DNA from: a bacterium
GTDB lineage: Bacteria > JAAXHH01
NCBI GenBank assembly: GCA_963693015.1
Contig: OY843748.1
Coordinates: forward strand, 3,200,395-3,264,394
Direction: 5' to 3'
Length of the DNA stretch: 64,000 nt
Position 1 is the first letter of the stretch. Every line of letters begins with the position of its first letter. Shown here piece by piece: positions 32,729 to 56,474 of this stretch. The notes beneath the pieces are model-generated. The model saw only the letters and a list, made by a program, of their open reading frames with translations, ran no database searches and had not been told where the DNA came from. Made by a program: the position numbers and the translations under genes.

Positions 32729-32782
32729 GACCAGACGGAGTGTTCAGACCAAACGGAGTGTCCGGGCCAGGCGGAGTATCCG
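32729..32782. repeat. Three imperfect 18-bp tandem repeats (GACCAGACGGAGTGTTCA-like)
   Basis: gaccagacggagtgttca / gaccaaacggagtgtccg / ggccaggcggagtatccg, about 45 nt upstream of the enolase-superfamily gene. A duplicated cggtcgcgttgcRgYccggYccgg motif also occurs at about 32600-32665. Confidence 0.6.
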
Positions 32783-32826
32783 GGATAACGACACTTTCAT
32801 CGATCCTTCAAATGGAAAGCGGGCAT

Positions 32827-34029
32827 ATGCGCATCACCGAAGTCCGCGTGCGGCAGGTTGCCGTCCCGCGCATCTACGACACCTACTGCGCGGACCCCAA
32901 GCACCTGAAGGCCACCATCAATCACGGCAGGACCACCTACCAGATCATCGAATTGAAGACCCATGGCGGGTTGACCGGGGTCGGCGAGGTATCTGATATC
33001 GCGCCGCGGATGGACGCGCCCTCGTCTGAATCTCTGCAGAGCATATTGGCCGCAGTGCTGGGCAACGGCGACATACGCGCGTGGCGCGCCCTTTATGACG
33101 GGGTGGACGAGGCGCTTCCCAAAGGCTGGTATCCCGAACTCAGGCAGCTGGTGCTATTCGGAGTCGAAATCGCGCTACTCGACCTGGTCGGCAAGGCGCA
33201 CGAACTTCCGCTCTTTGAACTCCTGGGCGGCCGCTGCCGGCCCGGCGCATCCGTTTCCTGGGTCGCCTATCTGCGCGGCGACGCCACCCTCGAGGACGAG
33301 CTGCGGGCCCTTGAGCTGGAAGTGTCCGACCAGGTGGGATCGGGCATGAAGGCCTTCAAACTCAAGGTGGGCGAGGACCACGAACGCGACCTGGCGAGGG
33401 TGAGGCTGGCGCGTAGGATCGCGGGCCCCGCGGCCTACGTCAAGGTGGACGCCAGCGGTTACTGGGAGGAGGACGAGGCCCCGTCCCGGCTGCGAGACAT
33501 GGCGGAGGCCGGCGCCGACGCGTGCGAGACGCCGATTCGCGCGCTCTCGAGGCCCATGTCTCGGGAGGACCCCGACCGGATCGAAGCGGATGCGGTCGGG
33601 ATCGCCGAAGCGCTGGCGAAGGTCCGCGGCCGTTCCCCCATACCGATCATCGAGCACGTCGCGGATCTCGGGGACGTCTTCCTGACGGCCCTCATCCGCC
33701 ACCGCGCCGTGGATATCGTCAACGTCGTGCCCTGCCAGGCCGGCGGGCTTTGCCGCGCGAAGCGGCTGATCCATGCCGCGGAGACCGCGGGCATGCCCGC
33801 GCTGTTGGGAAGTACCATCGAACTGGGACCCGGGACGGCGGCATCGGTGCATCTCGCGGTTTCGTCGGCAAGCGTAAACGTGCCCTCGGACCTGGTGGGT
33901 CCAGGGCTGCTTGAGGGCGACGTGTGCACCAAGCCCTTCTCCCTCGAGGGCGGCGAACTCGCCCCCTTCGAAGGTCCCGGGCTGGGCATTGATCTGGATG
34001 AAGAAAAGATGGAGCGCTGGGTGGGTTAG
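32827..34029 (+). CDS. Enolase-superfamily enzyme (mandelate racemase / muconate lactonizing enzyme family)
   Basis: Start MRITEVRV at 32827. MR/MLE-type barrel motifs (KLKVG, D...E...D metal ligands). Confidence 0.8.
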   Translation: MRITEVRVRQVAVPRIYDTYCADPKHLKATINHGRTTYQIIELKTHGGLTGVGEVSDIAPRMDAPSSESLQSILAAVLGNGDIRAWRALYDGVDEALPKGWYPELRQLVLFGVEIALLDLVGKAHELPLFELLGGRCRPGASVSWVAYLRGDATLEDELRALELEVSDQVGSGMKAFKLKVGEDHERDLARVRLARRIAGPAAYVKVDASGYWEEDEAPSRLRDMAEAGADACETPIRALSRPMSREDPDRIEADAVGIAEALAKVRGRSPIPIIEHVADLGDVFLTALIRHRAVDIVNVVPCQAGGLCRAKRLIHAAETAGMPALLGSTIELGPGTAASVHLAVSSASVNVPSDLVGPGLLEGDVCTKPFSLEGGELAPFEGPGLGIDLDEEKMERWVG

Positions 34030-34134: not shown

Positions 34135-34581
34135 TCACCGTCTGGATCTGCCGGATCTGCCCGGCGCGATGCGTGATGCTTCCTCCGCGAGTTTCTCGAA
34201 TGCCTTAAACTCGTCTGCAGAGAGCATACCCTTCAGGTTTTCCTTGAACTTTTTCTCGTTTCCCTCCAGTTGTTCACGCAGCCAGTTCCAGTCCCCGGAC
34301 TTTCTGGCCTGTTCCACCAGCGCTTCCTTCTGAGTCGAGGCTTCCTTCACCACGGCACGCAGTTGCAATACCTGTTCGTCTGTCGTATCCATCCGGATGC
34401 TCAGCACGTGCCATATCTGGGTGACGGGAAAGGTGCTCACCGCCTGCATTTGTTCCATCATGGCGCTGTTCTGGCCACGGCCGCCCATTCGGCCGAATCC
34501 GCGTCGCTGGGCATCCGCTTCGCTGGCGGTATAGGCGATCATGACCAATCCGAGCAGGGCCAGGTGAAGACGATATTTCAT
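34135..34581 (-). CDS. Periplasmic Spy/CpxP-like small protein
   Basis: Signal peptide plus helical LTXXQ-like segments. Confidence 0.45.
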   Translation of the reverse strand: MKYRLHLALLGLVMIAYTASEADAQRRGFGRMGGRGQNSAMMEQMQAVSTFPVTQIWHVLSIRMDTTDEQVLQLRAVVKEASTQKEALVEQARKSGDWNWLREQLEGNEKKFKENLKGMLSADEFKAFEKLAEEASRIAPGRSGRSRR

Positions 34582-34720
34582 TTTTTGACTCCTTTCAAAA
34601 TGGTAAAAAGCCGCGGTTTAAAACCCCGGTTGAATGCCGCGGTCGGACTTGGGATCCTTCCGCGGCATGTTCTCGCTCCTTAAAACAATCGGTGCACAGT
34701 AATTCACGGTCGACGCCAAC

Positions 34721-35386
34721 TCAACGCCGGTCGCGGGATTCACGGCCACCCCGCCGCCAGCGCATCCCGGCATCCCGGCGTTCGTCCCGCCGGTCGCGGA
34801 ATGATTCACGCAGCTTTTCCTGCTGCTCCGCGGTCAGCACGTTTCTGAACTCGGCTCGGAAGACGGCGCCTCGCTCGAACACGCTGCCCTGGGCCGCTGA
34901 TACGGCCGCGGCCAGTTCTTTGACCTTGTTAACGTCCGGCCTGGTCTCGCTCATCACTTCGCGCAGTTCGATCCGTGCGAGTCTCGTGTCGGCGCGAAGC
35001 TGAACCATGTCCCGGGCGTAGGCGGAGCGCAGCGTCCTGATCTTTTCCTGCTGCTCGTCAGTGAGTTCGAGTCTGGCCATCGCTCTCCGGGCCAGACGCG
35101 TCCTCCCGACGTCCGCGTCGGCGTAATCAAAATCGAAGTCGTCGACGGCGTCGTCCGCCGATCCGGCCTCTGCGCGTTCGGCTTCATCGGCGTGCCCGGC
35201 GTCCGCCCCATGTTCGGCACCCGCCGCGTGACCGGCGTCCGCGGAGGCGGCATCGTGATGACCTGTTCCCCCAAGCCCGGTCCTGCCCATGGCATCGAAG
35301 GCCCAGAACAGTACGACCAAGCTCAGCGCGCCGGCAAAGATCCCTGGAATTACCTTTTTCATCTTTTTGCTCCCTTCGTTGGACAA
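34721..35386 (-). CDS. Periplasmic LTXXQ-motif (Spy/CpxP family) protein
   Basis: Two LTxEQQEK motifs (LTDEQQEKIRTL, LTAEQQEKLRE). N-terminal signal/TM. Confidence 0.65.
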   Translation of the reverse strand: MSNEGSKKMKKVIPGIFAGALSLVVLFWAFDAMGRTGLGGTGHHDAASADAGHAAGAEHGADAGHADEAERAEAGSADDAVDDFDFDYADADVGRTRLARRAMARLELTDEQQEKIRTLRSAYARDMVQLRADTRLARIELREVMSETRPDVNKVKELAAAVSAAQGSVFERGAVFRAEFRNVLTAEQQEKLRESFRDRRDERRDAGMRWRRGGRESRDRR

Positions 35387-35530
35387 CCCGTGGTTGAAAT
35401 GACCGCGATCTCCGGAGATCGTATTCGTGCTGCTCTACAGGATTGGACAGCGATCGCTCGTGGGTTATTCCAACTTTCTTCGCGATCGCATCGCGGCCCG
35501 ACGCGTCATCAGATCCGGTGGAAGGGCGCG

Positions 35531-36103
35531 CTAGTGGTCGCCCCCGCGCCCCCGCTCATCCGAACTGCCGTTATCCTGGTGGATGCCGCTATGGCGCTCG
35601 CCCAGTCCACTTCCATCACTCGCCCCATTGCGCTCGCCCGGCCCATTGCCCTCACTCGACCTGTTACCTCTGTCCGGCCTGTTGCGGCCGCCCGGCCTGT
35701 TGCGCGGCCGGCGGGACTCGTGATCACCCTGCCTGCGGAATTCCCGCATGCTTTCGCGACGCTCCCGTATCTGCTTGATCCGTTCGCGCTGCTCTTCAGT
35801 GAGTATGGGTTCCAGGTCCCGGTGCAATGAATCGACCAGGGCCTGCATCTCCTGCCGGTGACGCACGTAGTTCTCCCGGAACCCGGGTTCGTGTTCGCCC
35901 ACCACTTCCCTGATCCTGCGTATCTGCTCCTGGTCCGGCCGCACCATTCTGACCCATCTCTCCACGAAACGCTCCCGCGTCATCTGGGGAGGGGGCGGCT
36001 GCAGGCGGTCCCTGGCGAAGGCGCCCAGGATCAATGCGCCGCAGATCATGCCGATGATCAAAGTGACCAGCAGGATGGCCGCGGTCTTCAAGTGGATGTT
36101 CAT
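35531..36103 (-). CDS. Membrane-anchored LTXXQ-like periplasmic protein with RG-rich tail
   Basis: N-terminal TM helix, LTEEQRERIKQIRE motif, C-terminal R/G/N-rich low complexity. 4-nt overlap with the anti-sigma gene. Confidence 0.55.
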   Translation of the reverse strand: MNIHLKTAAILLVTLIIGMICGALILGAFARDRLQPPPPQMTRERFVERWVRMVRPDQEQIRRIREVVGEHEPGFRENYVRHRQEMQALVDSLHRDLEPILTEEQRERIKQIRERRESMREFRRQGDHESRRPRNRPGGRNRPDRGNRSSEGNGPGERNGASDGSGLGERHSGIHQDNGSSDERGRGGDH

Positions 36104-36564
36104 AATGCGCCCTCCGTTTCCAGTGCGATCCGCGCGTCGTAGAGATCCTCAGGATACAGTTCCCCGTTCAGGCCGAAGGACGCCGTGAGGGAGACGCTTC
36201 CGGACGTGGTCAGGTTGTAGGTCAACAGCAGGACCGCGGCGATGGACGCGGCCACCGCCACCCTTCGGAACATCATTGGCAGCGCGTCCTGGAAGTCCGG
36301 CGCTGCCCCGACGGCGGTCTCTGGCGCGGAGTGGACCTCCGATTCCTGGTCCAGTCGATCCATGACCCTGCTGGTGAACCCTGGCCTGAAAGAGGGTGGT
36401 TCCTGACCCTCCATCTGGATGCGAATCCGGACCAGTCGCTCACGTTCTTCCCGCAGGCCGGAATCGCGCCGGAGCGCCGCGTCCAGGCGGTTTTGCTCTT
36501 CGGCCGTCAGGGTCGTATCCAGCGACCGGTACAGCAGATCCAGGTCAGATCGTTTCATGGACAA
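36100..36564 (-). CDS. Putative anti-sigma factor (single TM)
   Basis: Overlaps the ECF sigma gene by 20 nt. Has a C-terminal TM segment (VAVAASIAAVLLL). Confidence 0.55.
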   Translation of the reverse strand: MSMKRSDLDLLYRSLDTTLTAEEQNRLDAALRRDSGLREERERLVRIRIQMEGQEPPSFRPGFTSRVMDRLDQESEVHSAPETAVGAAPDFQDALPMMFRRVAVAASIAAVLLLTYNLTTSGSVSLTASFGLNGELYPEDLYDARIALETEGAL

Positions 36565-37135
36565 GCTCCCTGTTAGAGGATATGAGTATACGCTTCAGTT
36601 TTTCCTGGGATCTCTTCAGGCGGGACAGCACCGTCCCGACGGGCAGACCCAGGATCTCGGCGGTTTCTTTCGAAGTATAGCCTTCCATCAGCCGGAGTAC
36701 GACGACCGAACGGAATTCGGGTTTCAGTTGGTTCAGCGCCTTGTTTATCCTGTTCGGCGTGTCGTCGTATTCGGCGCTGGCCCGCGGATCCTCGAATTCC
36801 TGGTCCGGCGCGTCTTTTTCTTTGCCAACCGGTGTAAATGGAATGAAGATCGAACGGCGGCGGCGTTTCTTGATTTCATTCAGCGACAGGTTGATGGCGA
36901 TGCGCGTCAGGTAAGTGCCGACCGAGGCCTGCCCGCGGAATCCCCGCAACCCTCGATAGAACCGGATGAGGGTCTCCTGCCCCACGTCCTCGGCTTCGGC
37001 CGTGTCCCCGAGCATGCGAATGACCACGGCGGCCACGCGCCCCTCGTACCTTTTCACCAGTTCCCGGAAGGCATCCTCGCTGCCGTCGCGGGCGGCGTCT
37101 ACCAGTGCTTCGTCCGTCAAGGCGTCTACCCTCAT
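36545..37135 (-). CDS. ECF (sigma-70 family, group 4) RNA polymerase sigma factor
   Basis: Region 2 (ETLIRFYRGLRGF) and region 4 HTH (YTSKETAEILGLPVGTVLSRLKRS). Confidence 0.9.
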   Translation of the reverse strand: MRVDALTDEALVDAARDGSEDAFRELVKRYEGRVAAVVIRMLGDTAEAEDVGQETLIRFYRGLRGFRGQASVGTYLTRIAINLSLNEIKKRRRRSIFIPFTPVGKEKDAPDQEFEDPRASAEYDDTPNRINKALNQLKPEFRSVVVLRLMEGYTSKETAEILGLPVGTVLSRLKRSQEKLKRILISSNRELVHETI

Positions 37136-37322: not shown

Positions 37323-37796
37323 ATGGCTTTCGATCATATCGAACAGCGGCGGATCATGGGGCATTTCGCGACCGGCGTGACCGTCGTAACTACCTGGTAC
37401 GAGAATCAGCCGCAAGGCATGACCGCCAACGCGGTGGCTTCGCTCTCCCTGGAGCCTCCACTCATCCTTGTATCCGTGGACGTCAAGGCCCAGATGAACG
37501 CCTGCCTCAGGGCCAGCGACTGCTTTGCCGTCAACATACTGACCGAGGAGCAGGAAGAACTGTCCGTGCGGTTCGCCAAACACGGGCCGAAGGACTTTGC
37601 CGGCATCGATTACCGTACCGAGGCCACGGGCTCTCCCGTTTTCGAGCGGTCACTGGCCTACGTCGACTGCCGGGTCGCCAGCGTTCTGCCGGGCGGGGAT
37701 CACGACATCTTCATCGGCGAGATCGTGGCGGGGGGCACGTGGGAGGGACGGCCGCTCCTCTTTTACGGCGGCAAATACGGCAGCCTGTCCGGCTGA
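37323..37796 (+). CDS. Flavin reductase family protein
   Basis: Start MAFDHIEQ at 37323. FMN-binding split-barrel signatures (GVTVVTT, SLEPPLILVSV). The upstream part of track ORF 36966-37796 is rejected. Confidence 0.8.
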   Translation: MAFDHIEQRRIMGHFATGVTVVTTWYENQPQGMTANAVASLSLEPPLILVSVDVKAQMNACLRASDCFAVNILTEEQEELSVRFAKHGPKDFAGIDYRTEATGSPVFERSLAYVDCRVASVLPGGDHDIFIGEIVAGGTWEGRPLLFYGGKYGSLSG

Positions 37797-37847
37797 ATCC
37801 CGTCCACGGCCGCAGACTACAGGCATCACGGCTGATCCGGAACATCC

Positions 37848-39518
37848 ATGCAATACGGTTTCATCATAGACAACAGGAAGTGTATCGGGTGCCACGCCTG
37901 CACCGTCGCGTGCAAGGCGGAGCACGAGGTGCCCCTCGGCGTCAACCGGACCTGGGTGAAGTACATCGAGAAAGGGACCTATCCGAACACGGCGCGGCAT
38001 TTCTCCGTCATGCGGTGCAACCACTGCGCGGACGCCCCCTGCGTGGAGATCTGCCCGGTGACGGCGCTGTACACCCGGAAGGACGGCATCGTCGATTTCG
38101 ATCCCCGGCGCTGCATCGGATGCAAGGGCTGCATGCAGGCCTGCCCCTACGACGCCCTGTACATCGACCCGGACACCCATACGGCGGCCAAGTGCAACTA
38201 TTGCGCCCACCGGGTGGATATCGGTCTCGAGCCCGCCTGCGTAAACGTCTGCCCCGAGCACGCCATCATCTCCGGTGACATGGACGATGGTGCTACGGAG
38301 ATCGCCCAGCTGCTCGCGAAGGAGCAGGTGACGGTCCGCAAGGTGGAAAAGGACACGAAGCCCCGGCTGTACTATATCGACGGCGACGAGGCCTCTCTGA
38401 CGCCCGGGGAGACCGCGACGTCCGACAACTACATGTGGAGTTCGCAGTCGGACGGCGTGGGCCATTTCGCCCGGTACGTAGAGGAACGCACCGCCCGCTC
38501 GAACCCGGAGGACATGGTCCGGCAGCTTTCCGGGGAAGAAAAAGGACAGGACGGTCGGGACGGGGCGAACGGCCGGGCGGAACAGGGCGGCCAGGATTCC
38601 GCGAATGGTCGAGCCGGACGAGACGGCGGAGATACCGGAGGATCAGGCAAGGATGCCGCGCCGCGCCGGGTCTATGACGCGCCGGACAAGGGCGTGCTGT
38701 GGGGCAACGACGTGGCGGCCTACGTGTGGACCAAGGCCATCTCGGCGGGTGCGTTCCTGATGCTGTTTGCCGCTTCCGTCCTTGGACTTGCTGTGGATCC
38801 CGTCCTCGCCTGGACCGCCGGGACGGTCGCCATGACGTTTCTCCTGGCCACGACGGTCCTGCTGGTCGGCGACCTGACCCAGCCCAGGCGCTTTCTCTAC
38901 GTGCTGCTTCGTCCCCAGTGGAAATCCTGGCTGGTACTCGGCGGCTATGCCCTTACCCTTTACGGCCTGGCGCTCACGTTATGGGCGGCGGCCATGCTCA
39001 CCGGACGGACTGAAGCGGCGGCAATCATCGGCGGGATCACGGCCGTCCTGGCGGTCCTTACCGCGGTGTACACGGCCTTTCTCTTCGCCCAGGCCAAGGG
39101 CCGGGACTTCTGGCAGAGCCCGACGCTGGTCATCCACATGCTGCTCCACGCGGTGCTGGCCGGCGCCGCGGTATTCGCTATTGTCTTCCTGTTCAGTGCG
39201 CCAGGCGAGGCCTGGTTCGCCTTCGTCCGAAACACTCTGGTTATCGCCGTCATCCTGAACCTGCTGGTCATCGCGGCCGAGATGCTGACGCCCCACCCGA
39301 CGGCCGACGCCCGGAAAGCCGTGCAGGCCATCGTCCGGGGCCGGTACCGGGGCTATTTCTGGTTCCTCGGCATCGCCATCGGCAACGTGGTACCCGTCGT
39401 CCTGGTATGGATAGGCGGAGAAGCGATGCTCGCCGCGGCGGGCGCGGGCGTGCTGATCGGCCTCTACGCGACCGAGTACGTCTGGGTCAGGGCGCCGCAG
39501 GATATACCGCTGAGCTGA
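37848..39518 (+). CDS. Fusion of a 4Fe-4S ferredoxin-type subunit (DmsB/PsrB-like) and an NrfD/PsrC-like polytopic membrane anchor
   Basis: N-terminus carries four Cys clusters (CIGCHACTVAC, CNHCADAPC, CIGCKGCMQAC, CNYCAHRVDIG). A Gly/Asp/Arg-rich linker follows, then about 8 predicted TM helices. No twin-arginine signal. Confidence 0.8.
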   Translation: MQYGFIIDNRKCIGCHACTVACKAEHEVPLGVNRTWVKYIEKGTYPNTARHFSVMRCNHCADAPCVEICPVTALYTRKDGIVDFDPRRCIGCKGCMQACPYDALYIDPDTHTAAKCNYCAHRVDIGLEPACVNVCPEHAIISGDMDDGATEIAQLLAKEQVTVRKVEKDTKPRLYYIDGDEASLTPGETATSDNYMWSSQSDGVGHFARYVEERTARSNPEDMVRQLSGEEKGQDGRDGANGRAEQGGQDSANGRAGRDGGDTGGSGKDAAPRRVYDAPDKGVLWGNDVAAYVWTKAISAGAFLMLFAASVLGLAVDPVLAWTAGTVAMTFLLATTVLLVGDLTQPRRFLYVLLRPQWKSWLVLGGYALTLYGLALTLWAAAMLTGRTEAAAIIGGITAVLAVLTAVYTAFLFAQAKGRDFWQSPTLVIHMLLHAVLAGAAVFAIVFLFSAPGEAWFAFVRNTLVIAVILNLLVIAAEMLTPHPTADARKAVQAIVRGRYRGYFWFLGIAIGNVVPVVLVWIGGEAMLAAAGAGVLIGLYATEYVWVRAPQDIPLS

Positions 39519-39587
39519 ATAGACACCGATAAACGCGCACTACGCGGAACAACCCTATGATCATGTGCACTGAATGGAACCATCCGC

Positions 39588-42452
39588 ATGTCCACGCGCC
39601 ATAAACCGGGGCTGATCGAATCGCTGGCCGAGAAAATCGGCCTGATTCCGAACCTGCACGCGGAAGACGGGCCGGATCTTCCCAGTCTGACCGACGGCGG
39701 CGCGCTCACCGACTACCCGCCGCCGGACCAGTGGGACGACTGGGTGGAGTACGAGGCGCAGGACTGGCCGCGGCAGCAGGCGAAACACTACATGGTGGTG
39801 CCCACGGCCTGCTTCAACTGCGAGGCCGGGTGCGGACTCCTGAGCTACGTGGACAAGGAAACGATGGAGGTCCGCAAGTTCGAGGGCAATCCCTACCACC
39901 CGGCCAGCCGGGGACGCAACTGCGCCAAGGGACCGGCCACGATCAACCAGATCCGCGACACGGACCGCATCCTCCATCCCATGCGCCGGTCGGGCGCCCG
40001 CGGAAGCGGCGAGTGGGAACGGGTGTCCTGGGACGACGCGCTGGACGACATCGCCGCCCGGATCCGGGACCGCCTGAAGCAGGGCGCCAACAACGAGATC
40101 GCCTACCACGTGGGCCGGCCCGGGCACGAAGGCTACATCGACCGCGTGCTCAAGGCCTGGGGCGTCGACGGACACAACAGCCATACCAACATCTGTTCAT
40201 CGGGAGCACGCTTCGGCTACGCCCTCTGGCACTTCTTCGACCGGCCTTCGCCCGACCACGCCAACGCGCAGTTCATCCTCCTGATCAGCGCCCACCTGGA
40301 ATCGGGGCACTACTTCAATCCCCATGCGCAGCGCATCATCGAGGGCATGATGAAGGGCGCGAAGCTCGCGGTCATGGACCCGCGGCTCTCCAACACGGCC
40401 AGCATGGCCGATCACTGGCTGCCCACCTATCCGGGCAGCGAGGCCGCGGTGCTGCTGGCCATGGCCAACGTCATCCTGCAGGACGGCCTCTACGACGCCG
40501 GGTTCATGAAGACGTGGGTCAACTGGCAGACCTACCTGGAGAAGGAACACCCGGACGCCCCGCGCACCTTCGAACGGTTCATCGAAGCGCTCAAAGCGGT
40601 CTACAGCGAATACACCCCCGAGTTCGCCGAGCAGGAAAGCGGGGTGCCGGCGGCGCAGGTCGTGGAGATCGCCCGCCAGATCGGCCGGGCGGGATCGCGT
40701 TTCGCCACCCACAACTGGCGCAGCGCGGGCAGCGGCAACGCCGGCGGCTGGGCCGTGGCGCGCTGCCTCCACTTCCTGAACGTGCTCACCGGCAGCGTCG
40801 GCACGGAGGGCGGCACCTCGCCGAGCGGGTGGAACAAGTTCAAGCCCAACGTCTTCGACCACCCCCCGGACCAGAAGTTCTGGAACGAACTGCATTTCCC
40901 GAAGGAATACCCCCTTTCCCATTACGAAATGAGCTTTCTCCTGCCCCATTTCCTGAAAGAGGGGCGGGGGAAGCTGGCCGTGTACTTCACCCGGGTCTTC
41001 AATCCCGTGTGGACGTATCCGGACGGATTTACCTGGGTCGAGGCGCTGCGCGACGAGGAGAAGGTCGGACTGCACGCGGCCCTGACGCCCACGTGGAACG
41101 AGACCGCCTATTTCGCCGACTACGTGCTGCCCATGGGCCACGCCAGCGAACGCCACGACATCATCAGCTACGAGACCCATTCCGGTACCTGGATCGGGTT
41201 CCGCCAGCCCGTCCTGCGCGAGGCGCGGCGGCGCATGGGCGACCCGGTGGACTTCACCTACGAGGCCAACCCGGGCGAGGTCTGGGAAGAGGACGAGTTC
41301 TGGATCGAACTGTCCTGGCGCATCGATCCCGACGGCAGCCTGGGCGTGCGGGATCACTTCATTTCTCCCTACCGGCCGGGCGAGAAGATCACCATCGACG
41401 AATACTACCGGTACATCTTCGATCACGTGGACGGGCTGCCCGAGGCCGCCGGTAAGGAAGGACTTTCCACCCTGGATTACATGCGCAAGTACGGGGCCTT
41501 CGAGGTGGAGAAGACGGCCTACGCGAAACACCTCAAGACGCTGGACGACGAGGCGGTCGCGGGCGCCGAAGTCGATCCGGAGACGAACACCCTGGTCGCC
41601 GATGGCAAGACCGTAGGCGTCATGGTGGACGGTTCGCCGCGGGCGGGCTTTCCCACGCCGTCGCTGAAGCAGGAATTCTATTCCCAGACCATGGTGGACT
41701 GGGGCTGGCCGGAATACGCCATCCCCACCTACATCAAGAGCCACGTGCACCCCGACGAACTCGACCGCGAGAACGGGGAATTCCCGTTGTTGCCCACCTT
41801 CCGGCTGCCCACGCTGATCCACTCCCGGTCCGGCAATGCCAAGTGGCTCAACGAGATCTCGAACCGCAATCCCGTGTGGATGCACCAGCAGGACGCCGAC
41901 CGGATGGGCATAGGTACCGGCGACCTGGTCCGGGTGACCACCGAAATCGGCTATTTCGTGGACCGCGTCTGGGTCACCGAGGCCATGAAACCCGGCGTGG
42001 TCGCCTGTTCCCACCACCTGGGGCGCTGGCGGCGGCGGCAGGACGCGAAAGGCAACCGCTGGTCGGTGAATCTCGTCGATATCCAGGAAGAGGCCGGCGG
42101 GAAGTGGCGCATGAAGGTGATGGACGGGATCCGGCCCTACGAGAGCGCCGACCGCGACTCCGCCCGCATCTTCTGGCGGGACGGCGGCGTGCACCAGAAC
42201 ATCACCTTCCCCGTGCATCCCGATCCGATCAGCGGCATGCACTGCTGGCACCAGAAGGTCCGCGTCGAAAAGGCCCGTGAAGAGGACGCCTACGGAGACG
42301 TGATGGTCGATACGGAGAAGTCCTTCGAGGTATACCGCGCGTGGCTGGACCAGACGCGGCCCGCACCGGGTCCGGGCGGCCTGCGCCGTCCCCTCTGGCT
42401 CAACCGGCCCGTTCGGCCCGCCGAAGAGACGTTCTACCTGCCCGAAGAATAG
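39588..42452 (+). CDS. Molybdopterin (bis-MGD) oxidoreductase catalytic subunit, DMSO-reductase family, no Tat signal
   Basis: N-terminal FeS motif CFNCEAGCG...C and about 950 aa of MopB-like domains. The N-terminus MSTRHKPGLIESL lacks an RR motif. Confidence 0.85.
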   Translation: MSTRHKPGLIESLAEKIGLIPNLHAEDGPDLPSLTDGGALTDYPPPDQWDDWVEYEAQDWPRQQAKHYMVVPTACFNCEAGCGLLSYVDKETMEVRKFEGNPYHPASRGRNCAKGPATINQIRDTDRILHPMRRSGARGSGEWERVSWDDALDDIAARIRDRLKQGANNEIAYHVGRPGHEGYIDRVLKAWGVDGHNSHTNICSSGARFGYALWHFFDRPSPDHANAQFILLISAHLESGHYFNPHAQRIIEGMMKGAKLAVMDPRLSNTASMADHWLPTYPGSEAAVLLAMANVILQDGLYDAGFMKTWVNWQTYLEKEHPDAPRTFERFIEALKAVYSEYTPEFAEQESGVPAAQVVEIARQIGRAGSRFATHNWRSAGSGNAGGWAVARCLHFLNVLTGSVGTEGGTSPSGWNKFKPNVFDHPPDQKFWNELHFPKEYPLSHYEMSFLLPHFLKEGRGKLAVYFTRVFNPVWTYPDGFTWVEALRDEEKVGLHAALTPTWNETAYFADYVLPMGHASERHDIISYETHSGTWIGFRQPVLREARRRMGDPVDFTYEANPGEVWEEDEFWIELSWRIDPDGSLGVRDHFISPYRPGEKITIDEYYRYIFDHVDGLPEAAGKEGLSTLDYMRKYGAFEVEKTAYAKHLKTLDDEAVAGAEVDPETNTLVADGKTVGVMVDGSPRAGFPTPSLKQEFYSQTMVDWGWPEYAIPTYIKSHVHPDELDRENGEFPLLPTFRLPTLIHSRSGNAKWLNEISNRNPVWMHQQDADRMGIGTGDLVRVTTEIGYFVDRVWVTEAMKPGVVACSHHLGRWRRRQDAKGNRWSVNLVDIQEEAGGKWRMKVMDGIRPYESADRDSARIFWRDGGVHQNITFPVHPDPISGMHCWHQKVRVEKAREEDAYGDVMVDTEKSFEVYRAWLDQTRPAPGPGGLRRPLWLNRPVRPAEETFYLPEE

Positions 42453-42517: not shown

Positions 42518-43432
42518 TTACGCTTCCCGCAGAATTTCCCGGACGGCGGAGCACACCGCCTCGTCGCCCGCCGGCATGGCGCCGGTTCGAGACGCCACCC
42601 ACGCGCCGAGCCGGTTGGCGGCCTCGCTGATCCGATCGAGCGTCGAGCGGCGCAGATACCCGCTGGCCAGGGCCGCGGTGAAGGCGTCGCCGGCTCCGAT
42701 GGTATCCGCCACGTCAACCGACACACCCGGGTGCGCCACGGTCTCCGAGGACGTAACCAGCAGGCTGCCTTCCGCGCCGCGGGTGACGCAGACCAGTTTC
42801 AGGTTGTAGGAATCCCGCAGCCGCCGCGCCATGGACGCGAGATCACCATCTCCCAGGTCCAGCAGGGGACAGACCGTGCGCAGTTCTCCGTCGTTCAGCT
42901 TGACGATATGGACACGCTGGAAGGAATCGTGCAGCAGGCAGGCTGAGTACCGGTCCTGCCGCAGATTCACGTCGAAGATTCGCAAGGCGGAGGGGCGAAG
43001 AGAGTCGAGGAAGGCCGTTACGGCGTGGGCTGAACCGTCCGCCTGGTGCCGGGACACCGTTCCAAAGCACACGGCGTCCGCCCGGGCGGACAGCGCCGCC
43101 CAGCCGGGCGTCCACTCCATATGTTCCCAGGCGACGCCGCCGTTTATGATGAAGTCGGGCTGTCCGTCCGGTCCGATGCTCACGTCGACCGTCCCGGTGG
43201 GATGGACGTCGTCCCGCTGGATTGCGTCTGTGGGCAGGCCCTTGTCGGCAATGCGATCCACGGCTTCGTTGCCGAGGGCGTCCCGCCCGACCCGGCTCGC
43301 GACGATCCCTTCTTCACCCAGGAGAGACGCGAAGTAGGCGAAGTTCGCCGTGGCGCCGCCGAGCTGGGGGCCCGAGGGCAGCAGGTCCCAGAGTAATTCG
43401 CCCAGGCCGACGATGACGTAGCGGTCTTTTAT
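42518..43432 (-). CDS. PfkB-family sugar kinase (start codon unclear)
   Basis: GAGDAFTAAL anion-hole motif. The reading frame continues upstream of the track ORF (…KDRYVIVGLGELLWDL…) to about 43432 with no clean ATG/GTG. It abuts the upstream gene stop. Confidence 0.65.
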   Translation of the reverse strand: MKDRYVIVGLGELLWDLLPSGPQLGGATANFAYFASLLGEEGIVASRVGRDALGNEAVDRIADKGLPTDAIQRDDVHPTGTVDVSIGPDGQPDFIINGGVAWEHMEWTPGWAALSARADAVCFGTVSRHQADGSAHAVTAFLDSLRPSALRIFDVNLRQDRYSACLLHDSFQRVHIVKLNDGELRTVCPLLDLGDGDLASMARRLRDSYNLKLVCVTRGAEGSLLVTSSETVAHPGVSVDVADTIGAGDAFTAALASGYLRRSTLDRISEAANRLGAWVASRTGAMPAGDEAVCSAVREILREA

Positions 43433-44364
43433 TTCAGTTCCACCTCTATCGTACCGAGCGTCGTGTAGCTCATCACGGCCTTGCTGCCCGCGCCCATGCG
43501 GGGCGGAGGAAAGACCGTGCCCGTGATCACCACGTCTCCGGCCCGAAGGTATTCGTCGCTGTAGGTGGTCAGCTCGTTGGCCAGCCAGGTCAGCGCTTCC
43601 AGGGGATCGACGCCCATGTTCATCGTGGCCAGCGCGGAGGCCCTTTCCTCGCCGTCGATCTCCACCGTCGCGGTTTCATTCGTGAAGTCCATCTCCGCCA
43701 GCGGCACGCGCGTCTCGCCCAGGATGATGCCCACGTGGAACACGTTGCCCGTGACGTCATGGTCACGGGTGGATGGAGTTTCCTCCGTGCCGCTGGTCCA
43801 GGAGGAAAGCAGTTCGATCACGCCGCCCACCGCGGTGACCGCATCGCCCACCTGCTCGCGGGTCAAATCGGGACCGGGGAGATCCTCGCCGATCCAGAAG
43901 ACGAACTCGCCCTCGACGACCGCCGTGTCCGCCACGAAGGAGGCTGCCTCCACGGGCGTTCCGGGCTCGAACACGTTCGACGCCATGATGTGGCCGTAAA
44001 TGGGATCCAGCGTGGCCGGATCCTCGGGCATGCGGGAGAAGCCGATCTTCCACCCGATGCGTTCTTCGGACTTGAGCTTCTCGGCCAGGATGTCCGCCTG
44101 GATGTCGTAGGCGGTCTGGCGGTCCAGATCGGGGAAATTGACCGCCATGGCCTCGGTGTTGATCTTCTTCCCTTCGGCTTCCAGCAGATGGGCGACGATG
44201 GCGGTCCGGTCGGAGTCGGGCGTGAGGGTGGTGGTGAGGAATTCGGCATCGCCTGCCGTTTCGGCGTCGGATGCCATGTCTGTCGATTGCTCTTCGGTGG
44301 TGCCGCAGGCGACCGACGCCGCCAGGCATAGACCTGCCAGAAGTTTCCACGGACTACCTTGCAT
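43429..44364 (-). CDS. 2-keto-4-pentenoate hydratase / FAH-like hydratase-decarboxylase family protein with lipoprotein-type signal
   Basis: MhpD/HpaH-like C-terminal region. N-terminal LAGLCLAASVACG lipobox. Confidence 0.6.
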   Translation of the reverse strand: MQGSPWKLLAGLCLAASVACGTTEEQSTDMASDAETAGDAEFLTTTLTPDSDRTAIVAHLLEAEGKKINTEAMAVNFPDLDRQTAYDIQADILAEKLKSEERIGWKIGFSRMPEDPATLDPIYGHIMASNVFEPGTPVEAASFVADTAVVEGEFVFWIGEDLPGPDLTREQVGDAVTAVGGVIELLSSWTSGTEETPSTRDHDVTGNVFHVGIILGETRVPLAEMDFTNETATVEIDGEERASALATMNMGVDPLEALTWLANELTTYSDEYLRAGDVVITGTVFPPPRMGAGSKAVMSYTTLGTIEVELK

Positions 44365-44569
44365 GCTGTTGATCCTCCGGATATGTCAAACTGTATGGAA
44401 TTGGGGCTGATCGCTGATTCGAGGTTCACGGGTAGTTTATACATAACATACCGCCTGTCAAGTCTTTACCCTTGATTCACGGACTGTCAAAAGGTACTAT
44501 TCCACTCATGCTTTCTCGGTGACCGCACCACGACCGCGACCCGTCAATACAACCCGCAAGGAGCGATCC

Positions 44570-45637
44570 ATGTCCCCCGATGATCACCTCGTTTCGCTGC
44601 TCCAGGAACTCGTTTACGCACGGGGGCCGTCAGGCCAGGAAGACGAGGTGCGGGCGGTCTGCGAACGGGAACTCCGATCCCTTTGCGACGAGACTTGGGT
44701 AGACGCCGCGGGCAACGTCATCGGCCTGTTGAAGGGGACCTCGCCGGACGCCCCGGTGATCCGCGTCATGGCCCATCTGGACGAACTGGCCCTGGTCGTC
44801 AAGCGCGTCAACGAGGACGGCACGCTCCGGGTGAATCCCCTCGGGGGCATCTATCCGGCGAATTACGGGCAGGGGCCCGTCGAGATCCTGGCGGACAGTG
44901 GCATCATGCCCGGCGTCCTGTCCGTCGGGCCGCAGCACACGACGGCCGATTCCGCGCGGATATGGGAGACCAAGATCAGGGGCGGCAACGTGGCCATGGA
45001 CTGGAATCACGTGTACGTGTTCACGCGTATGACGGCTGCGCAGCTGCAGGCGGCGGGTGTGCATGCAGGCACCCGCGTGGTCATTGCCCGTTCGCGGCGC
45101 GCCTTCTGGGAAATCGAAGACTGCATCGGCGGGTACTTCATGGACAACCGGGCGGCCATCGCCATCGCCGTCGGGGCGGCCGCGCGCATGAAGGACCAGG
45201 GCGTCCGGCCCGCGGGCGACGCCTACCTGGTGATGACCACCTGCGAGGAGATCGGCGGCCACGGCGCCGCGTACGCCGCGCGGACCCTGCCCGGCGACGT
45301 ATCCCTGGCCGTGGACTCCGGGCCGGCCTGCGAGGAGTACGGCGTGGAACTCAACGACCAGCCCGTCGTCGTCTACGGCGACGTCCAGGGACTCTACGAC
45401 AAGTCCATCGCCGACCGCCTGCTGGCGTGCGGCAGGGAACTGGGCATGGAACCCCAGTGCGCGTACTGGCAGAGCTACGCTTCGGACGCGTCCATGGCCA
45501 AGGCCGTGGGACAGACCCCCCGGGCCGGGCTGCTGTGCATCCCCACGGAGAACACCCACGGTTACGAGATCATACCCCGCAACGGGCTGTACCGCTGCGT
45601 CGAACTGCTGGCGGCCTACCTTGAAAAACCGGAGTAA
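44570..45637 (+). CDS. M42-family metallopeptidase (glutamyl aminopeptidase / endoglucanase-like)
   Basis: Start MSPDDH after AAGGAG. M42-type motifs (MAHLDELALVV, CEEIGGHGA). Confidence 0.8.
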   Translation: MSPDDHLVSLLQELVYARGPSGQEDEVRAVCERELRSLCDETWVDAAGNVIGLLKGTSPDAPVIRVMAHLDELALVVKRVNEDGTLRVNPLGGIYPANYGQGPVEILADSGIMPGVLSVGPQHTTADSARIWETKIRGGNVAMDWNHVYVFTRMTAAQLQAAGVHAGTRVVIARSRRAFWEIEDCIGGYFMDNRAAIAIAVGAAARMKDQGVRPAGDAYLVMTTCEEIGGHGAAYAARTLPGDVSLAVDSGPACEEYGVELNDQPVVVYGDVQGLYDKSIADRLLACGRELGMEPQCAYWQSYASDASMAKAVGQTPRAGLLCIPTENTHGYEIIPRNGLYRCVELLAAYLEKPE

Positions 45638-45695
45638 CTGAGCAGAGCGGAGTTATTTGGCAGACCGGAGTAACTGAGCAGAGCGGAGGAACTTC

Positions 45696-46961
45696 ATGCC
45701 CCTGAAAGTCACCAATGTGGAACGATTCACCGTCAATGTGCCGTTCACGCAGGGACAGCGGCCCATGGCGGAGCGGACGGTATACAACTGGTCCGTCTTC
45801 GAGCTGTGCAAGGTCACCACCGACGCCGGCCTCGTGGGCTGGGGCGAGACCATCGTCCACTACATCCACGCGCGGGTGACCGACCGGAGCGTCGAGCGCG
45901 TCATGGGAAGGAGCCCGGCGGACTTCATGCAGGACGATACGATCGGCGCCGGGTTGCAGATGGCCCTGTACGACGTGGTGGGCAAGGCGCTCGAGGTCCC
46001 GTGCCACAAGCTCCTGGGCAACAAGGTGCGCGACTGGGTGCCGATTTCGTGGTGGTCGAACGAGGGGCCGCCGGACGACTGGGTTCGCCAGGTCCGGGAC
46101 GCCGTGGAAAACGGATACACGACCATCAAATTGAAGCAGCGGCCCTGGCATGATATCCACGAACAGATGACGGCGATAGACGCGAGCGTGCCGCGCCACT
46201 TCCGGGTGGACCTCGACGCCAACGGTTCCATGCACAACGCGGCGGCGGCCATGCCCGTCATGCGACGCCTGGAGCGGTTCGACGTCGTGGCCATGTTCGA
46301 GACGCCCATACCGCAACCCGACATCCTGGGGAACCGGCAGTTGCGGCAGGTCGTCAGCCGCCCCATCGCCATGCATTTCGGCTCGCCGCCTTATACCACC
46401 GCGATCCGCGAAGGGGTCTGCGACGGTTTCGTCGTCAGCGGCGGCGCCACGCGGGTGATGTACCAGGGCATCCTCAGCGCGGAAGCCAACATGCCCTTCT
46501 GGCTCCAGATGGTGGGCAACGGGCTCACCACCACCTGGGCCGCCCATCTCGGCGCCGTGCTGACCCACGCCACATGGCCCGCCATCACCTGCATCAACCT
46601 GTACCGCAACCACCTGCTGAAGCACCCTATCGAGGTCGTGGGCGGCTTCCACCGCGTGCCCGACGGACCGGGCTTGGGCGTCGAAGTGGATGAGGAGGCC
46701 ATGCACGGCTTCCTCGTGCCCGACGACGTGATGAGGCCCTTCCGCGACCGGGACGAGCCGTACGACTTCCCGAAACCCCGCTTCATCCGCACGGCAGTCT
46801 ATCCCGACGGCCGCCGCGTCCACTTCTCGAACATCCGCCACGGGTGGCAGTTGGAGGCCTACACGCCCGGGGTCCGCACGGAGTACTGGCGGGAGGACGG
46901 CACCGATGGTTTCGAAGACCTGTGGAACCGTACGCAGGACCGGCCCGTATCCGAGGGTTGA
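45696..46961 (+). CDS. Enolase-superfamily (MR/MLE) dehydratase-like enzyme
   Basis: 421 aa. Capping domain then barrel with metal-ligand D/E/D spacing. Confidence 0.75.
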   Translation: MPLKVTNVERFTVNVPFTQGQRPMAERTVYNWSVFELCKVTTDAGLVGWGETIVHYIHARVTDRSVERVMGRSPADFMQDDTIGAGLQMALYDVVGKALEVPCHKLLGNKVRDWVPISWWSNEGPPDDWVRQVRDAVENGYTTIKLKQRPWHDIHEQMTAIDASVPRHFRVDLDANGSMHNAAAAMPVMRRLERFDVVAMFETPIPQPDILGNRQLRQVVSRPIAMHFGSPPYTTAIREGVCDGFVVSGGATRVMYQGILSAEANMPFWLQMVGNGLTTTWAAHLGAVLTHATWPAITCINLYRNHLLKHPIEVVGGFHRVPDGPGLGVEVDEEAMHGFLVPDDVMRPFRDRDEPYDFPKPRFIRTAVYPDGRRVHFSNIRHGWQLEAYTPGVRTEYWREDGTDGFEDLWNRTQDRPVSEG

Positions 46962-47117
46962 GGGAGGGGAACGCCGGACACGGAACGAGCGGTGAGGACC
47001 GGAGGACGTAAACGCGAATCAGGCAACGATGACCCGGCGAGAATCCGAGCATTCCGAAGACATCCGGGCATCCCGCAGACAGTTGAAGAAGGAAAACCAG
47101 AAAACCGGAGCAGAACC

Positions 47118-47867
47118 ATGAGACTGGCAGACAAGACGGCGATCGTAACCGGCGCGGCCTCGGGCATAGGGCGCGGCACCGCGGAGAAGATGGCGCGGGA
47201 AGGCGCCCGGGTCGTGGCCGTGGACATCAACGAAGTGGGGCTGGAGCAGACGGTCGAATCGATCCGCCGGGAAGGATGGGCGGCGACGGCGTGCGTCGCC
47301 GACGTGGGCCGGGACGAACAGGTCCAGCGCATGGTCCAGTGCGCCGTCGACACGTACGGCGGACTCGACGTCCTGCACAACAACGCCTACTGGCACGCGC
47401 CCGGGCCGATCTGCGACCTGGCGGAGGCCGACTGGGACCGGACGCTGGACGTCTGCCTGAAGGCGCTTTACCTGGGCTGCAGGCACGCCATCCCGGTCAT
47501 GAAGGAATCGGGCGGCGGGGCCATCGTCAATACGGCGTCGGTGCACAGCCTGGTGGGGTTTCGGGATTACGCCGCCTACGACGCGGCAAAGGGCGGTGTC
47601 ATCGGGATCACCCGGTCCGTCGCGGTGGACTACGGACCGGAAATCCGCAGCAACGCGGTGCTGCCCGGCGCCATACTGACGCACGCCTGGGACGGCCTCG
47701 ACGAGTCGATACGCAAGCCCTATACCGACCGGCCGCCCATGAAGCGGCTCGGGCTGCCGGAAGACATCGCCGCGGCCGTGGTGTTTCTCGCGTCCGACGA
47801 AGCGTCCTTCATTACCGGCGCCAGTCTGGTGGTCGACGGCGGACTGACCATCGTCGGGGACGCGTAG
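47118..47867 (+). CDS. SDR-family oxidoreductase
   Basis: TGAASGIGRG (a TGxxxGIG motif) and YAAYDAAK catalytic Y-x3-K. Confidence 0.9.
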   Translation: MRLADKTAIVTGAASGIGRGTAEKMAREGARVVAVDINEVGLEQTVESIRREGWAATACVADVGRDEQVQRMVQCAVDTYGGLDVLHNNAYWHAPGPICDLAEADWDRTLDVCLKALYLGCRHAIPVMKESGGGAIVNTASVHSLVGFRDYAAYDAAKGGVIGITRSVAVDYGPEIRSNAVLPGAILTHAWDGLDESIRKPYTDRPPMKRLGLPEDIAAAVVFLASDEASFITGASLVVDGGLTIVGDA

Positions 47868-54233: not shown

Positions 54234-55245
54234 AGTCGAATACGATGAAATCCACGAGAATCCCGATCGCTATGTAGATGCTGTATTCTCCTGCCTGGGA
54301 TCGGAATTCCTCGTGTTACCCAAAGGCGATGGTTTCGTCGAGTATCCTGTGTTCGAGCGCGGATACGAAGCGTTGAAAATCGCCACAGATGGCTTTACAG
54401 AAATCGAGCCAGACAGGATACTTCCCGTCATCATTTCTAAACCAATTGCAATTGTAGTTCTGAGGGCTATGCTTGGTTTCACACCCCCTGAATGGGGCTA
54501 TGTGACGACGCAAAGCACCGGAATCGATGTATCGCAACAGTTTATCCGATCGCTTGACAGAAAAGTCCGGCTGAATCCGGAATCCGAACTCAACCCGAAT
54601 GGTGTTACAGTAGATCGACTCAATGCCATGGTTCAAACAGCATGTCAATTACTGAAGTCAAAGACTCCCAATACACGAGAAGACCAATTGCATAGATTGG
54701 ATAAGGCTGATACGAGGCAAGGGGGCGAGGGCATTCAGCACCTATCCATGATGGGTGTCCCCTATGCCATGCTTCTATATGAACGATTTCTTGGAAGGCC
54801 CTTTGCTGGACACCGAGATTCCGTAAGTGAACTCATTGGCGATAGTCTTGAGTCGGCCATTGAGGATGTTCTTGTACAGGCTGGGATCAGCTACCGTAAA
54901 ACAGGACGCGCAGAGAAAATCGAGGGATTTGATCAGGCTCCTGACTTTATTATCCCGAGCGAATACAATCCTGTGGTCATCATCGAGGCGAAGATAACCG
55001 AGGACGACGGAACAGCCCGAGACAAGGTAACACGGATTCAACATCTTGGTGAACTGAGCGTCGCTGGTATTTCGACACGTGAACCGAGATTTCAGGTGAT
55101 AGCCTGTATTGGCGGTCGTGGTTTCGGAGTACGCCGTGAGGATATGAAGAAGTTGATAACCGCGACGAGGGGAAAGGTGTTTACAGCCAATACATTGAAC
55201 CAACTTGTCGATTGTACCCTACTTCGAGAATTCAGGAGTCGATAG
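54184..55245 (+). CDS. PD-(D/E)xK nuclease-like protein (candidate restriction endonuclease partner of the DUF1156 methyltransferase)
   Basis: ...QAPDFIIPSEYNPVVIIEAKITEDDG... fits the PD...(D/E)xK core. Three alternative ATG starts (54184, 54202, 54220) all overlap the methyltransferase stop at 54231-54233. Low GC. Confidence 0.55.
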   Translation: MKPQRSMEARWSMYPFEVEYDEIHENPDRYVDAVFSCLGSEFLVLPKGDGFVEYPVFERGYEALKIATDGFTEIEPDRILPVIISKPIAIVVLRAMLGFTPPEWGYVTTQSTGIDVSQQFIRSLDRKVRLNPESELNPNGVTVDRLNAMVQTACQLLKSKTPNTREDQLHRLDKADTRQGGEGIQHLSMMGVPYAMLLYERFLGRPFAGHRDSVSELIGDSLESAIEDVLVQAGISYRKTGRAEKIEGFDQAPDFIIPSEYNPVVIIEAKITEDDGTARDKVTRIQHLGELSVAGISTREPRFQVIACIGGRGFGVRREDMKKLITATRGKVFTANTLNQLVDCTLLREFRSR

Positions 55246-55276
55246 TTACACCGATATAGCCACCTATTACCGTAGA

Positions 55277-56266: not shown

Positions 56267-56474
56267 ATAATGATGCGTCTACCACTAATGCTGGAGGCTG
56301 TTTGGGCACAGAGTTGATATTAACACACTATAGTTGATTTCGAGATTGTAGGAGATATCTCGAATGTAAAACAATTGCCGAGGGCCGGGGATTAGAGAAC
56401 TCGCACGACTCAGCAGGATGCATGGCTGCACGACTGGCGCAAGTTAAAGGGAGAAGGGGCCATTCGACTCCGAA

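Follow-up and report, generated by a model that had tools for sequence, protein, structure and literature searches.

A widespread fused FeS-NrfD and molybdopterin operon of the SoeABC/PSRLC3 kind, probably a cytoplasm-facing sulfite:quinone oxidoreductase, in a Gemmatimonadota-type bacterium

The molybdoenzyme operon and its proposed role

We analyzed a molybdoenzyme operon in a 64,000-nucleotide stretch of bacterial DNA (assembly GCA_963693015.1, lineage JAAXHH01, contig OY843748.1, positions 3,200,395 to 3,264,394 of the forward strand). This whole stretch is called the window below, and positions are counted from its first letter. Three co-directional genes span 37323-42452: a flavin reductase gene, a gene encoding a ferredoxin-type subunit (B) fused to an NrfD-type membrane anchor (C), and the gene of a molybdenum/tungsten-bis(pyranopterin guanine dinucleotide) (Mo/W-bisPGD) catalytic subunit (A). 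The locus probably belongs to the SoeABC/PSRLC3 kind, with sulfite:quinone oxidoreductase as its most likely activity, and it is an ordinary copy of a conserved, very widespread and poorly annotated operon. The gene layout described in an earlier note on this DNA was reproduced, including the module order B-C-A, the 556-aa fusion with its Gly/Asp/Arg-rich linker and the 954-aa catalytic subunit.

From the evidence below we infer that sulfite is the substrate, which way the electrons flow and that a quinone accepts them. The 954-aa subunit would turn cytoplasmic sulfite into sulfate at its Mo-bisPGD site, with Cys203 as the Mo ligand. Likely sources of this sulfite are persulfide dioxygenase, the breakdown of organosulfur compounds and, in sulfur oxidizers, reverse Dsr. 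The FS0 cluster of the catalytic subunit would take up the two electrons first. They would then move along the four [4Fe-4S] clusters in the ferredoxin domain and reach a quinone bound within helices 1-4 of the anchor, close to the cytoplasmic side of the membrane. The anchor would lie upside-down in the membrane relative to PsrC, TtrC and NrfD and, because of this inversion, neither redox module would need export by the twin-arginine translocation (Tat) system. The fusion of B and C via a flexible linker would keep the ferredoxin domain tethered on the cytoplasmic side of the anchor, where the N-terminus of the latter lies.

Distribution and organization of the family

A genome scan (one genome per species) confirmed at least 596 relatives of the catalytic subunit, the best 80 of which (62-96% identity) form our detailed set; Allochromatium and Aquifex are not among them. 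These best 80 relatives come from Gemmatimonadota-like metagenome-assembled genomes (MAGs), many Bacteroidota (including the cultured Flavilitoribacter nigricans, Lutibacter aestuarii and Gaetbulibacter), Chlorobium, Calditrichota, Planctomycetota, Spirochaetia, Marinimicrobia, Acidobacteriota, Chloroflexota, Binatia and one euryarchaeote. A tblastn search against plasmids returned Thermomicrobium roseum (63% identity), Rhodococcus jostii RHA1 (59%) and several haloarchaea (56-60%). At 56-96% identity, catalytic subunits are found in hosts as diverse as Gemmatimonadota and haloarchaea. More than 120 database clusters match the catalytic subunit at 72-95% identity, and fused FeS-NrfD proteins of 530-580 aa with the same two domains likewise form more than 120 clusters, of which those at 84-94% identity carry the label Gemmatimonadetes and thereby indicate the group from which the window probably comes. 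Among 50%-identity representatives, the family is reduced to about one cluster (P0241, 59% identity), accompanied by a Tat-less outlier and by Tat-bearing relatives.

Of 88 related loci, 75 have a fused B+C open reading frame (ORF) of 485-627 aa beside the catalytic gene, nearly always directly upstream; the order A then BC was seen in one locus. The fused BC protein is thus the normal state of the family, and it is found in Gemmatimonadota, Bacteroidota, Chlorobium, Calditrichota, Planctomycetota, Acidobacteriota, Chloroflexota, Actinomycetota and haloarchaea. Most of the remaining loci are cut by contig ends, and two are possibly split. In the latter, B and C lie on separate overlapping or adjacent ORFs in a deltaproteobacterial MAG (L085, 5395-6928) and a Chloroflexia MAG (L079, 5189-6858), which represent either real unfused variants or frameshift errors. 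The earlier note had considered the fusion together with the inverted topology to be uncommon. That view has to be abandoned given the frequency of the fusion and the fact that such a system has already been named, as PSRLC3 (PMC5473276). We found no described SoeB-SoeC fusion in the searchable literature beyond the remark in that publication on “2 genes encoding PSRLC3.”

PSRLC3 is known from green sulfur bacteria, where it has been described as an alternative sulfite-oxidizing system and inferred to be a sulfite oxidase (PMC6338057, PMC9324843). It has long been regarded as a candidate sulfite oxidase of the cytoplasm and is also classed with SoeABC. Four of the orthologous loci are from Chlorobium/Chlorobiaceae (L035, L037, L040, and L061), with a catalytic subunit that is 69% identical to the one in the window. 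They share with it the two-gene layout (a fused protein of 517-535 aa, then a catalytic subunit of 953-955 aa), the absence of Tat signals and the Mo-Cys motif. In Chlorobium, BC and A are followed by the genes for TauE, DsrE2, a rhodanese, TusA, a CobB-like protein, DsrC and DsrA. This DsrE2 reaches the NCBIfam equivalog cut-off, and the CobB-like protein, encoded in the position of DsrN, is a DsrN candidate. The Chlorobium pair presumably represents PSRLC3, because it is Tat-less, consists of two genes and is linked to dsr, as in the published description; it was matched to this description and not to a named reference sequence. The locus studied here differs in having a Gemmatimonadota-type host, in the lack of dsr or other sulfur genes in the window and in the flavin reductase gene that lies upstream instead.

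SoeABC of Allochromatium vinosum (Alvin_2489-2491) and Aquifex aeolicus (aq_1231/1232/1234) was compared by description, not by sequence. Its modules are the same: an FS0-containing Mo-bisPGD subunit, a ferredoxin with four clusters and a heme-less NrfD anchor with eight helices. AvSoeA reportedly has a mass of about 109 kDa, compared with 108.4 kDa for the catalytic subunit here. SoeA and SoeB are likewise without Tat signals, with redox modules predicted to be cytoplasmic and an inverted anchor (PMC8076601). Both systems are also linked to sulfur oxidation by Dsr, TusA and DsrE, in our case via the loci of the orthologs. In contrast to the single BC polypeptide and the order BC-A found here, B and C are separate in SoeABC and the order is A-B-C; the residue types of the quinone site differ as well (see below). 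According to PMC8232776, in the part that paraphrases Dahl et al. (2013), soeABC genes are universal in purple and green sulfur bacteria. In a published tree, the complex iron-sulfur molybdoenzyme subunits of an FCB-group candidate phylum group with A. vinosum SoeA. Protein-database searches with A, BC and the outlier P0245 gave no match named SoeA, and NCBIfam and the PDB likewise yielded no model or entry for it. The tblastn search against plasmids recovered no proteobacterial soeABC; its hits in Azoarcus and Sulfurovum are B-C-A loci of a Tat/TorD type and served as outgroups.

Sulfur genes next to the orthologs and the likely substrate

In total, 829 ORFs within 6 kb of BC-A in 83 loci were clustered. 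The most frequent neighbor is a persulfide dioxygenase-rhodanese fusion (PDO-Rhd), which is present in 29 of the 83 loci, and a SulP sulfate permease is found in 20. YeeE-type sulfur transporters occur in seven and six loci, TusA, TauE and a flavoprotein resembling sulfide:quinone oxidoreductase (SQR) in six each, and DsrE in five. Genes for the molybdenum cofactor (Moco) recur too (MobA, MoaE and MoaD in eight loci each, MoeB in five). Altogether, one or more sulfur genes lie within this distance in 41 loci. In locus L002, from a 6.3-Mb genome, the genes upstream of BC and A encode PDO-Rhd, SulP and two YeeE proteins, for instance. In a SAR324 locus, A is followed by Rrf2 and TusA. Plasmid pRHL3 of R. 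jostii RHA1 has the order DsrE-TusA-BC-A-Mrp/NBP35, together with metallo-beta-lactamase-fold hydrolases, thioredoxin and ArsR regulators, and in Thermomicrobium a CsoR-type regulator is encoded directly upstream.

The neighbors of the orthologs clearly point to sulfite and persulfide metabolism. With a sulfite-producing enzyme upstream and sulfate/sulfite exporters alongside, a cytoplasmic step from sulfite to sulfate is to be expected, and a route from persulfide dioxygenase to SoeABC has already been discussed in the literature for sulfur oxidizers. The statement in the earlier note that substrate specificity is unreadable from the sequence thus holds for this sequence taken by itself, but not when the surroundings of its orthologs are taken into account.

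A gene for an Mrp/NBP35-family ATPase directly follows and overlaps the catalytic gene both on pRHL3 (L007, 11832-13001) and in Natrinema halophilum (L090, 10032-11192). This ATPase is of the Fe-S cluster carrier type and could be a dedicated maturation factor of the enzyme.

Several observations weigh against a sulfite:quinone oxidoreductase. In 42 of the 83 loci there is no sulfur gene within 6 kb. The 64-kb window itself contains no other genes of sulfur metabolism or Moco biosynthesis, so that for this genome the function is derived entirely from orthology. Public names of the homologs are generic or contradictory (“molybdopterin-dependent oxidoreductase,” “formate dehydrogenase,” “polysulfide reductase”), and the searchable literature holds no biochemically characterized member of the fused clade. 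Finally, the anchor has a signature (Y292, D342, S360, and Y408-T409) that is invariant in the fused-protein alignment A2 and whose residue types are known from tables of quinone sites in further NrfD proteins. These are the types of TtrC, MccD and FqoC, not those of Aquifex SoeC, for which Ser6, His65, Glu87 and further residues are listed (PMC8076601, Table 2). The anchor may therefore not be a close ortholog of SoeC. In view of this mismatch one may also ask if the inversion happened independently in this anchor and in SoeC.

Part of this evidence would also suit an enzyme of the same cytoplasm-facing architecture with another sulfur substrate (thiosulfate, a protein persulfide or thiosulfonate delivered by TusA/DsrE, or polysulfide), or a quinol-dependent reductase, an alternative that we regard as unlikely. 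The anchor signature is like that of TtrC/MccD rather than that of Aquifex SoeC, and sulfur carriers (TusA, DsrE, and rhodanese) recur nearby. The closest solved or curated relatives of the catalytic subunit, moreover, are PsrA, PhsA and ArrA, the nearest solved structures being Thermus PsrA and Shewanella ArrA. However, the equivalog scores for PhsA, PsrA and TtrA are far under the cut-offs (189 versus 694 for PhsA and 118 versus 1750 for TtrA), as is the ArrA score (123 versus 1600). The top neighbors produce sulfite (persulfide dioxygenase) or act as exporters (SulP and TauE), and the Chlorobium genes adjoin dsr, the product of oxidative Dsr being sulfite (PMC8232776). Oxidation of sulfite hence remains our preferred function.

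A membrane-bound formate:quinone oxidoreductase is very improbable, even though some NCBI and UniRef homologs are named “formate dehydrogenase.” The label “FqoABC” has been proposed for an uncharacterized NrfD complex of Chlorobi, Actinobacteria and Chloroflexi, and the FqoC of Calisto and Pereira has a similar taxonomic profile. Models of the formate dehydrogenase alpha subunit nevertheless give only 151 bits (TIGR01591, cut-off 666) and 110 bits (TIGR01553, cut-off 814) with the catalytic subunit, and the neighbors are sulfur genes, not formate genes. In formate dehydrogenases, a His accompanies the Sec/Cys Mo ligand, whereas here a Ser and not a His follows the Cys of the motif GHNSHTN(I/V)CS, which is kept in all core-family sequences of a 37-sequence alignment. 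The catalytic subunit of the window reads TNICSSG at this predicted Mo ligand. When aligned with PsrA (2vpw_A) and ArrA (6cz7_A), its Cys203 falls on the Cys of their corresponding motifs, which we take to be the Mo ligand in those structures. FqoC (CT0494; Y16, D65, S81, Y147, and T148) was also considered as a counterpart of the anchor domain and rejected. Its residues are spaced differently from those in the anchor domain of the Chlorobium orthologs (16, 67, 85, 133, and 134), and FqoC is therefore a different protein.

Tat signals and orientation of the membrane anchor

The prediction in the earlier note that the enzyme faces the cytoplasm with a SoeABC-like topology, given that neither the FeS domain nor the catalytic subunit carries a Tat signal, is supported by the N-termini, the charges of the anchor and the position of the catalytic subunit in a tree. 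The start codons of BC and A are the most upstream ones possible, with in-frame stops 5 (BC) and 10 (A) codons upstream. This excludes a Tat signal that would appear after re-assignment of the start, a case that the note had raised. The fused protein opens straight into the ferredoxin fold (MQYGFIIDNRKCIGC), being aligned from position 43 of the TtrB model, and the 74 residues ahead of the first Cys of A contain no twin-arginine and no hydrophobic stretch. Likewise, no N-terminal twin-arginine signal was found in the 88 A proteins of the family or in the fused proteins. The RR matches near their N-termini correspond to a conserved “RRY.(I/V)PT” just before the FS0 motif or are artefacts of the longest-ORF start.

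AlphaFold2 predicts eight helices in the NrfD domain with a predicted local distance difference test (pLDDT) score of about 90 (residues 286-311, 318-342, 361-384, 388-417, 427-446, 454-480, 501-522, and 525-551). Foldseek relates this domain to ActC and PsrC (2vpw_C, TMt 0.78), while a phmmer search of the PDB with the same domain gave no match. For the N-terminal domain, the top Foldseek match is PsrB (2vpw_B, 42% identity), a mainly sequence-based match given the low confidence of the model in this part. The model of the ferredoxin domain is poor (pLDDT of about 30), and it was therefore not used for docking the ferredoxin.

The orientation of the anchor was derived from the Lys and Arg residues counted in the loops of 75 aligned fused proteins. 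Since a naive hydropathy predictor miscounted the helices in Chlorobium and Sulfurovum, we used only this alignment-based count and the Azoarcus example. On the N-terminal face (loops 2-3, 4-5, and 6-7) the mean is 9.7 Lys+Arg per protein, versus 0.5 in loops 1-2, 3-4, 5-6, and 7-8, which have no more than 5-7 residues each. All 75 proteins show the bias in the same direction, and the N-terminal face holds about 95% of the loop Lys/Arg. In the Tat-dependent relative from Azoarcus, whose catalytic subunit starts with a Tat signal (MEFPKITRRTFLKASAG), the bias is reversed (2 versus 7). Under the positive-inside rule, the charges in the fused proteins place the N-terminus of the anchor, and with it the fused ferredoxin domain, in the cytoplasm. 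The termini of PsrC, in comparison, are on the P-side, while SoeC is expected to be inverted (PMC8076601). As predicted from sequence, a SoeABC-like topology with both the catalytic and the FeS modules facing the cytoplasm is strongly supported.

In a neighbor-joining tree, the catalytic subunit is nested in a Tat-less clade, with the Tat-bearing P0246, P0296 and P0260 and the Psr/Phs-like proteins outside. The catalytic subunit is thus not placed in a periplasmic clade, which the earlier note had suggested checking. Among the nearest outgroups, P0246 and P0296 (1115-1123 aa) have clear Tat signals and share the pre-FeS “YPP..W” and the SHTNICS Mo-Cys motifs. Another outgroup, the Tat-less clade of P0245 and P0394 (43% identity), has no Cys at the Mo-ligand position; to judge from these sequences, its members may use another Mo ligand or be non-catalytic.

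The periplasmic complexes PsrABC, PhsABC, TtrABC and ArrABC belong to the same superfamily and share a ttrBCA-like order of modules and the Cys Mo ligand, but they have Tat signals, separate B and C subunits, often a gene for a TorD-type chaperone, and an anchor with periplasmic termini. NarGHI, on the other hand, likewise faces the cytoplasm without Tat export and exchanges electrons via quinones. It differs in its NarI anchor, a diheme cytochrome b of unrelated fold, as well as in the Mo ligand of NarG, which is an Asp, and the match of the catalytic subunit to NarG is weak (E-value of about 1e-5 to 1e-9). A periplasmic complex exported without a Tat signal of its own, by hitch-hiking on a Tat-bearing partner or because of a mis-called start, is the least credible alternative: most relatives in the wider superfamily are Tat-exported and the sister proteins P0246, P0296 and P0260 bear Tat signals, but this is outweighed by the upstream stops, the missing Tat motifs, the covalent attachment of the ferredoxin to the positively charged face of the anchor, and neighborhoods with neither a conserved Tat-bearing partner nor the TorD-type chaperone encoded in the Tat-type loci of Azoarcus and Sulfurovum.

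Features of the locus and surrounding genes

The features of the locus are listed in Table 1.

Table 1. Coordinates of the genes, domains and motifs of the molybdoenzyme locus within the window.
Feature	Position	Strand	Basis
Flavin reductase (HpaC/DszD-type), 157 aa	37323..37796	+	Pfam Flavin_Reduct PF01613, E 2e-41
Fused SoeB/PsrB-like domain, linker and NrfD/PsrC-like domain, 556 aa	37848..39518	+	Pfam Fer4_11 (residues 53-144), NrfD (residues 282-545)
Four-cluster ferredoxin domain, residues 1-186, no signal peptide	37848..38405	+	16 Cys in four motifs
Gly/Asp/Arg/Ala-rich linker, residues 187-282	38406..38693	+	Composition; pLDDT <50 over most of its length
NrfD/PsrC-type anchor domain, 8 transmembrane helices, no Cys, N-in/C-in	38694..39518	+	AlphaFold2 model, charge bias
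Mo/W-bisPGD catalytic subunit (SoeA/PSRLC3-A-like), 954 aa, 108.4 kDa	39588..42452	+	Pfam Molybdop_Fe4S4 (69-121), Molybdopterin, Molydop_binding
FS0 [4Fe-4S] motif of the catalytic subunit (Cys75, Cys78, Cys82, Cys112)	39810..39923	+	Codons verified
Codon of Cys203, predicted Mo ligand of the catalytic subunit	40194..40196	+	Motif GHNSHTN(I/V)CS

All 16 Cys of the fused protein fall within residues 12-135 (positions 12, 15, 18, 22, 57, 60, 65, 69, 89, 92, 95, 99, 116, 119, 131, and 135). Among the Cys of the FS0 motif, C75, C78 and C112 are invariant in the catalytic-subunit alignment A1, and C82 is at least 90% conserved. The linker (96 residues, with 18 Gly, 11 Asp, 10 Ala and 10 Arg) is predicted to be disordered except for two short helices (206-217 and 220-228). 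The equivalent stretch measures 40-118 residues in the 75 fused proteins, with a median of 78. The best NCBIfam matches of the ferredoxin domain are TtrB, NrfC and DsrO, all under the cut-off and aligned from about position 40 of the models, and none of the three proteins of the locus reaches an NCBIfam equivalog cut-off. Around the operon we found no Rfam family (e.g., a Moco riboswitch), no sigma-70-like promoter and no convincing terminator.

The stop codon of the flavin reductase gene and the start of BC are 51 bp apart, and the two genes are probably co-transcribed. The earlier note had rightly placed this gene immediately upstream, but it is not a feature of the system. It is confined to the five loci of the Gemmatimonadota type; among the 88 loci, homologs (84-87% identity) occur only in L001 and L010-L012. 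The flavin reductase is a lineage-specific accessory neighbor rather than a core part of the system. Divergent from the operon, genes on the minus strand (34135-37135) encode an ECF (extracytoplasmic function) sigma factor, a probable anti-sigma protein and three small secreted LTXXQ/Spy-like proteins. This cluster is syntenic in the same relatives (L001 and L010-L012), and it may control the molybdoenzyme operon or merely adjoin it. The operon is flanked (32740-34029 and 42518-47867) by an apparent sugar-acid catabolic cluster unrelated to sulfur metabolism, which comprises two enolase-superfamily (MR_MLE) genes, a PfkB kinase, an FAA-hydrolase-family protein, an M42 peptidase and a short-chain dehydrogenase/reductase and is syntenic in L001.

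Elsewhere in the window, an island at 52026-56804 is low in GC (0.46-0.48, compared with about 0.63-0.66 on either side). Its three genes are a DNA-methyltransferase-like one (PADLOC HmaB/PglX/MTase_II, E-value 3e-28), an ORF without family match and a DUF4238 gene. In L001, which is 95% identical, the Na+/H+ antiporter and Cys/Met-pyridoxal phosphate genes that flank the site of the island are only 16 bp apart. The island is therefore a recent insertion and a candidate defense island. A 380-aa protein encoded at 1793-2935 on the minus strand matches the PADLOC candidate defense family PDC-S32 (E-value 2.6e-48) and, weakly, an AbiJ N-terminal domain; its gene sits at the beginning of the window, in DNA of lower GC content.

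Significance

For this window little is at stake, since it holds a routine copy of a conserved operon. What remains of interest is how broadly the family is distributed, how poorly it is annotated and that it lacks biochemical characterization. The fused clade is absent from curated family libraries and, under the name SoeC, from published NrfD surveys. On a bolder view, which we put forward tentatively and consider rather doubtful, the fused Tat-less clade could be an orthologous group separate from the three-subunit SoeABC of proteobacteria and Aquifex. It could then be the main, hitherto unrecognized, cytoplasmic quinone reductase for sulfite (or a related sulfur oxyanion) in aerobic heterotrophs and haloarchaea, completing the pathway from SQR to persulfide dioxygenase. 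The ancestors of such a clade might have been Tat-exported, with the signal then lost and the whole complex flipped across the membrane.

The family offers a clean natural example of an NrfD-type anchor in inverted orientation. With regard to annotation, a very widespread enzyme is listed under generic or wrong names, while the neighborhoods of its orthologs place it after persulfide dioxygenase or reverse Dsr, as the step from sulfite to sulfate. If this assignment is true, metagenomic surveys that rely on proteobacterial soeABC models may undercount sulfite oxidation in Bacteroidota, Gemmatimonadota, Acidobacteriota, Chloroflexota, Actinomycetota and Halobacteria.

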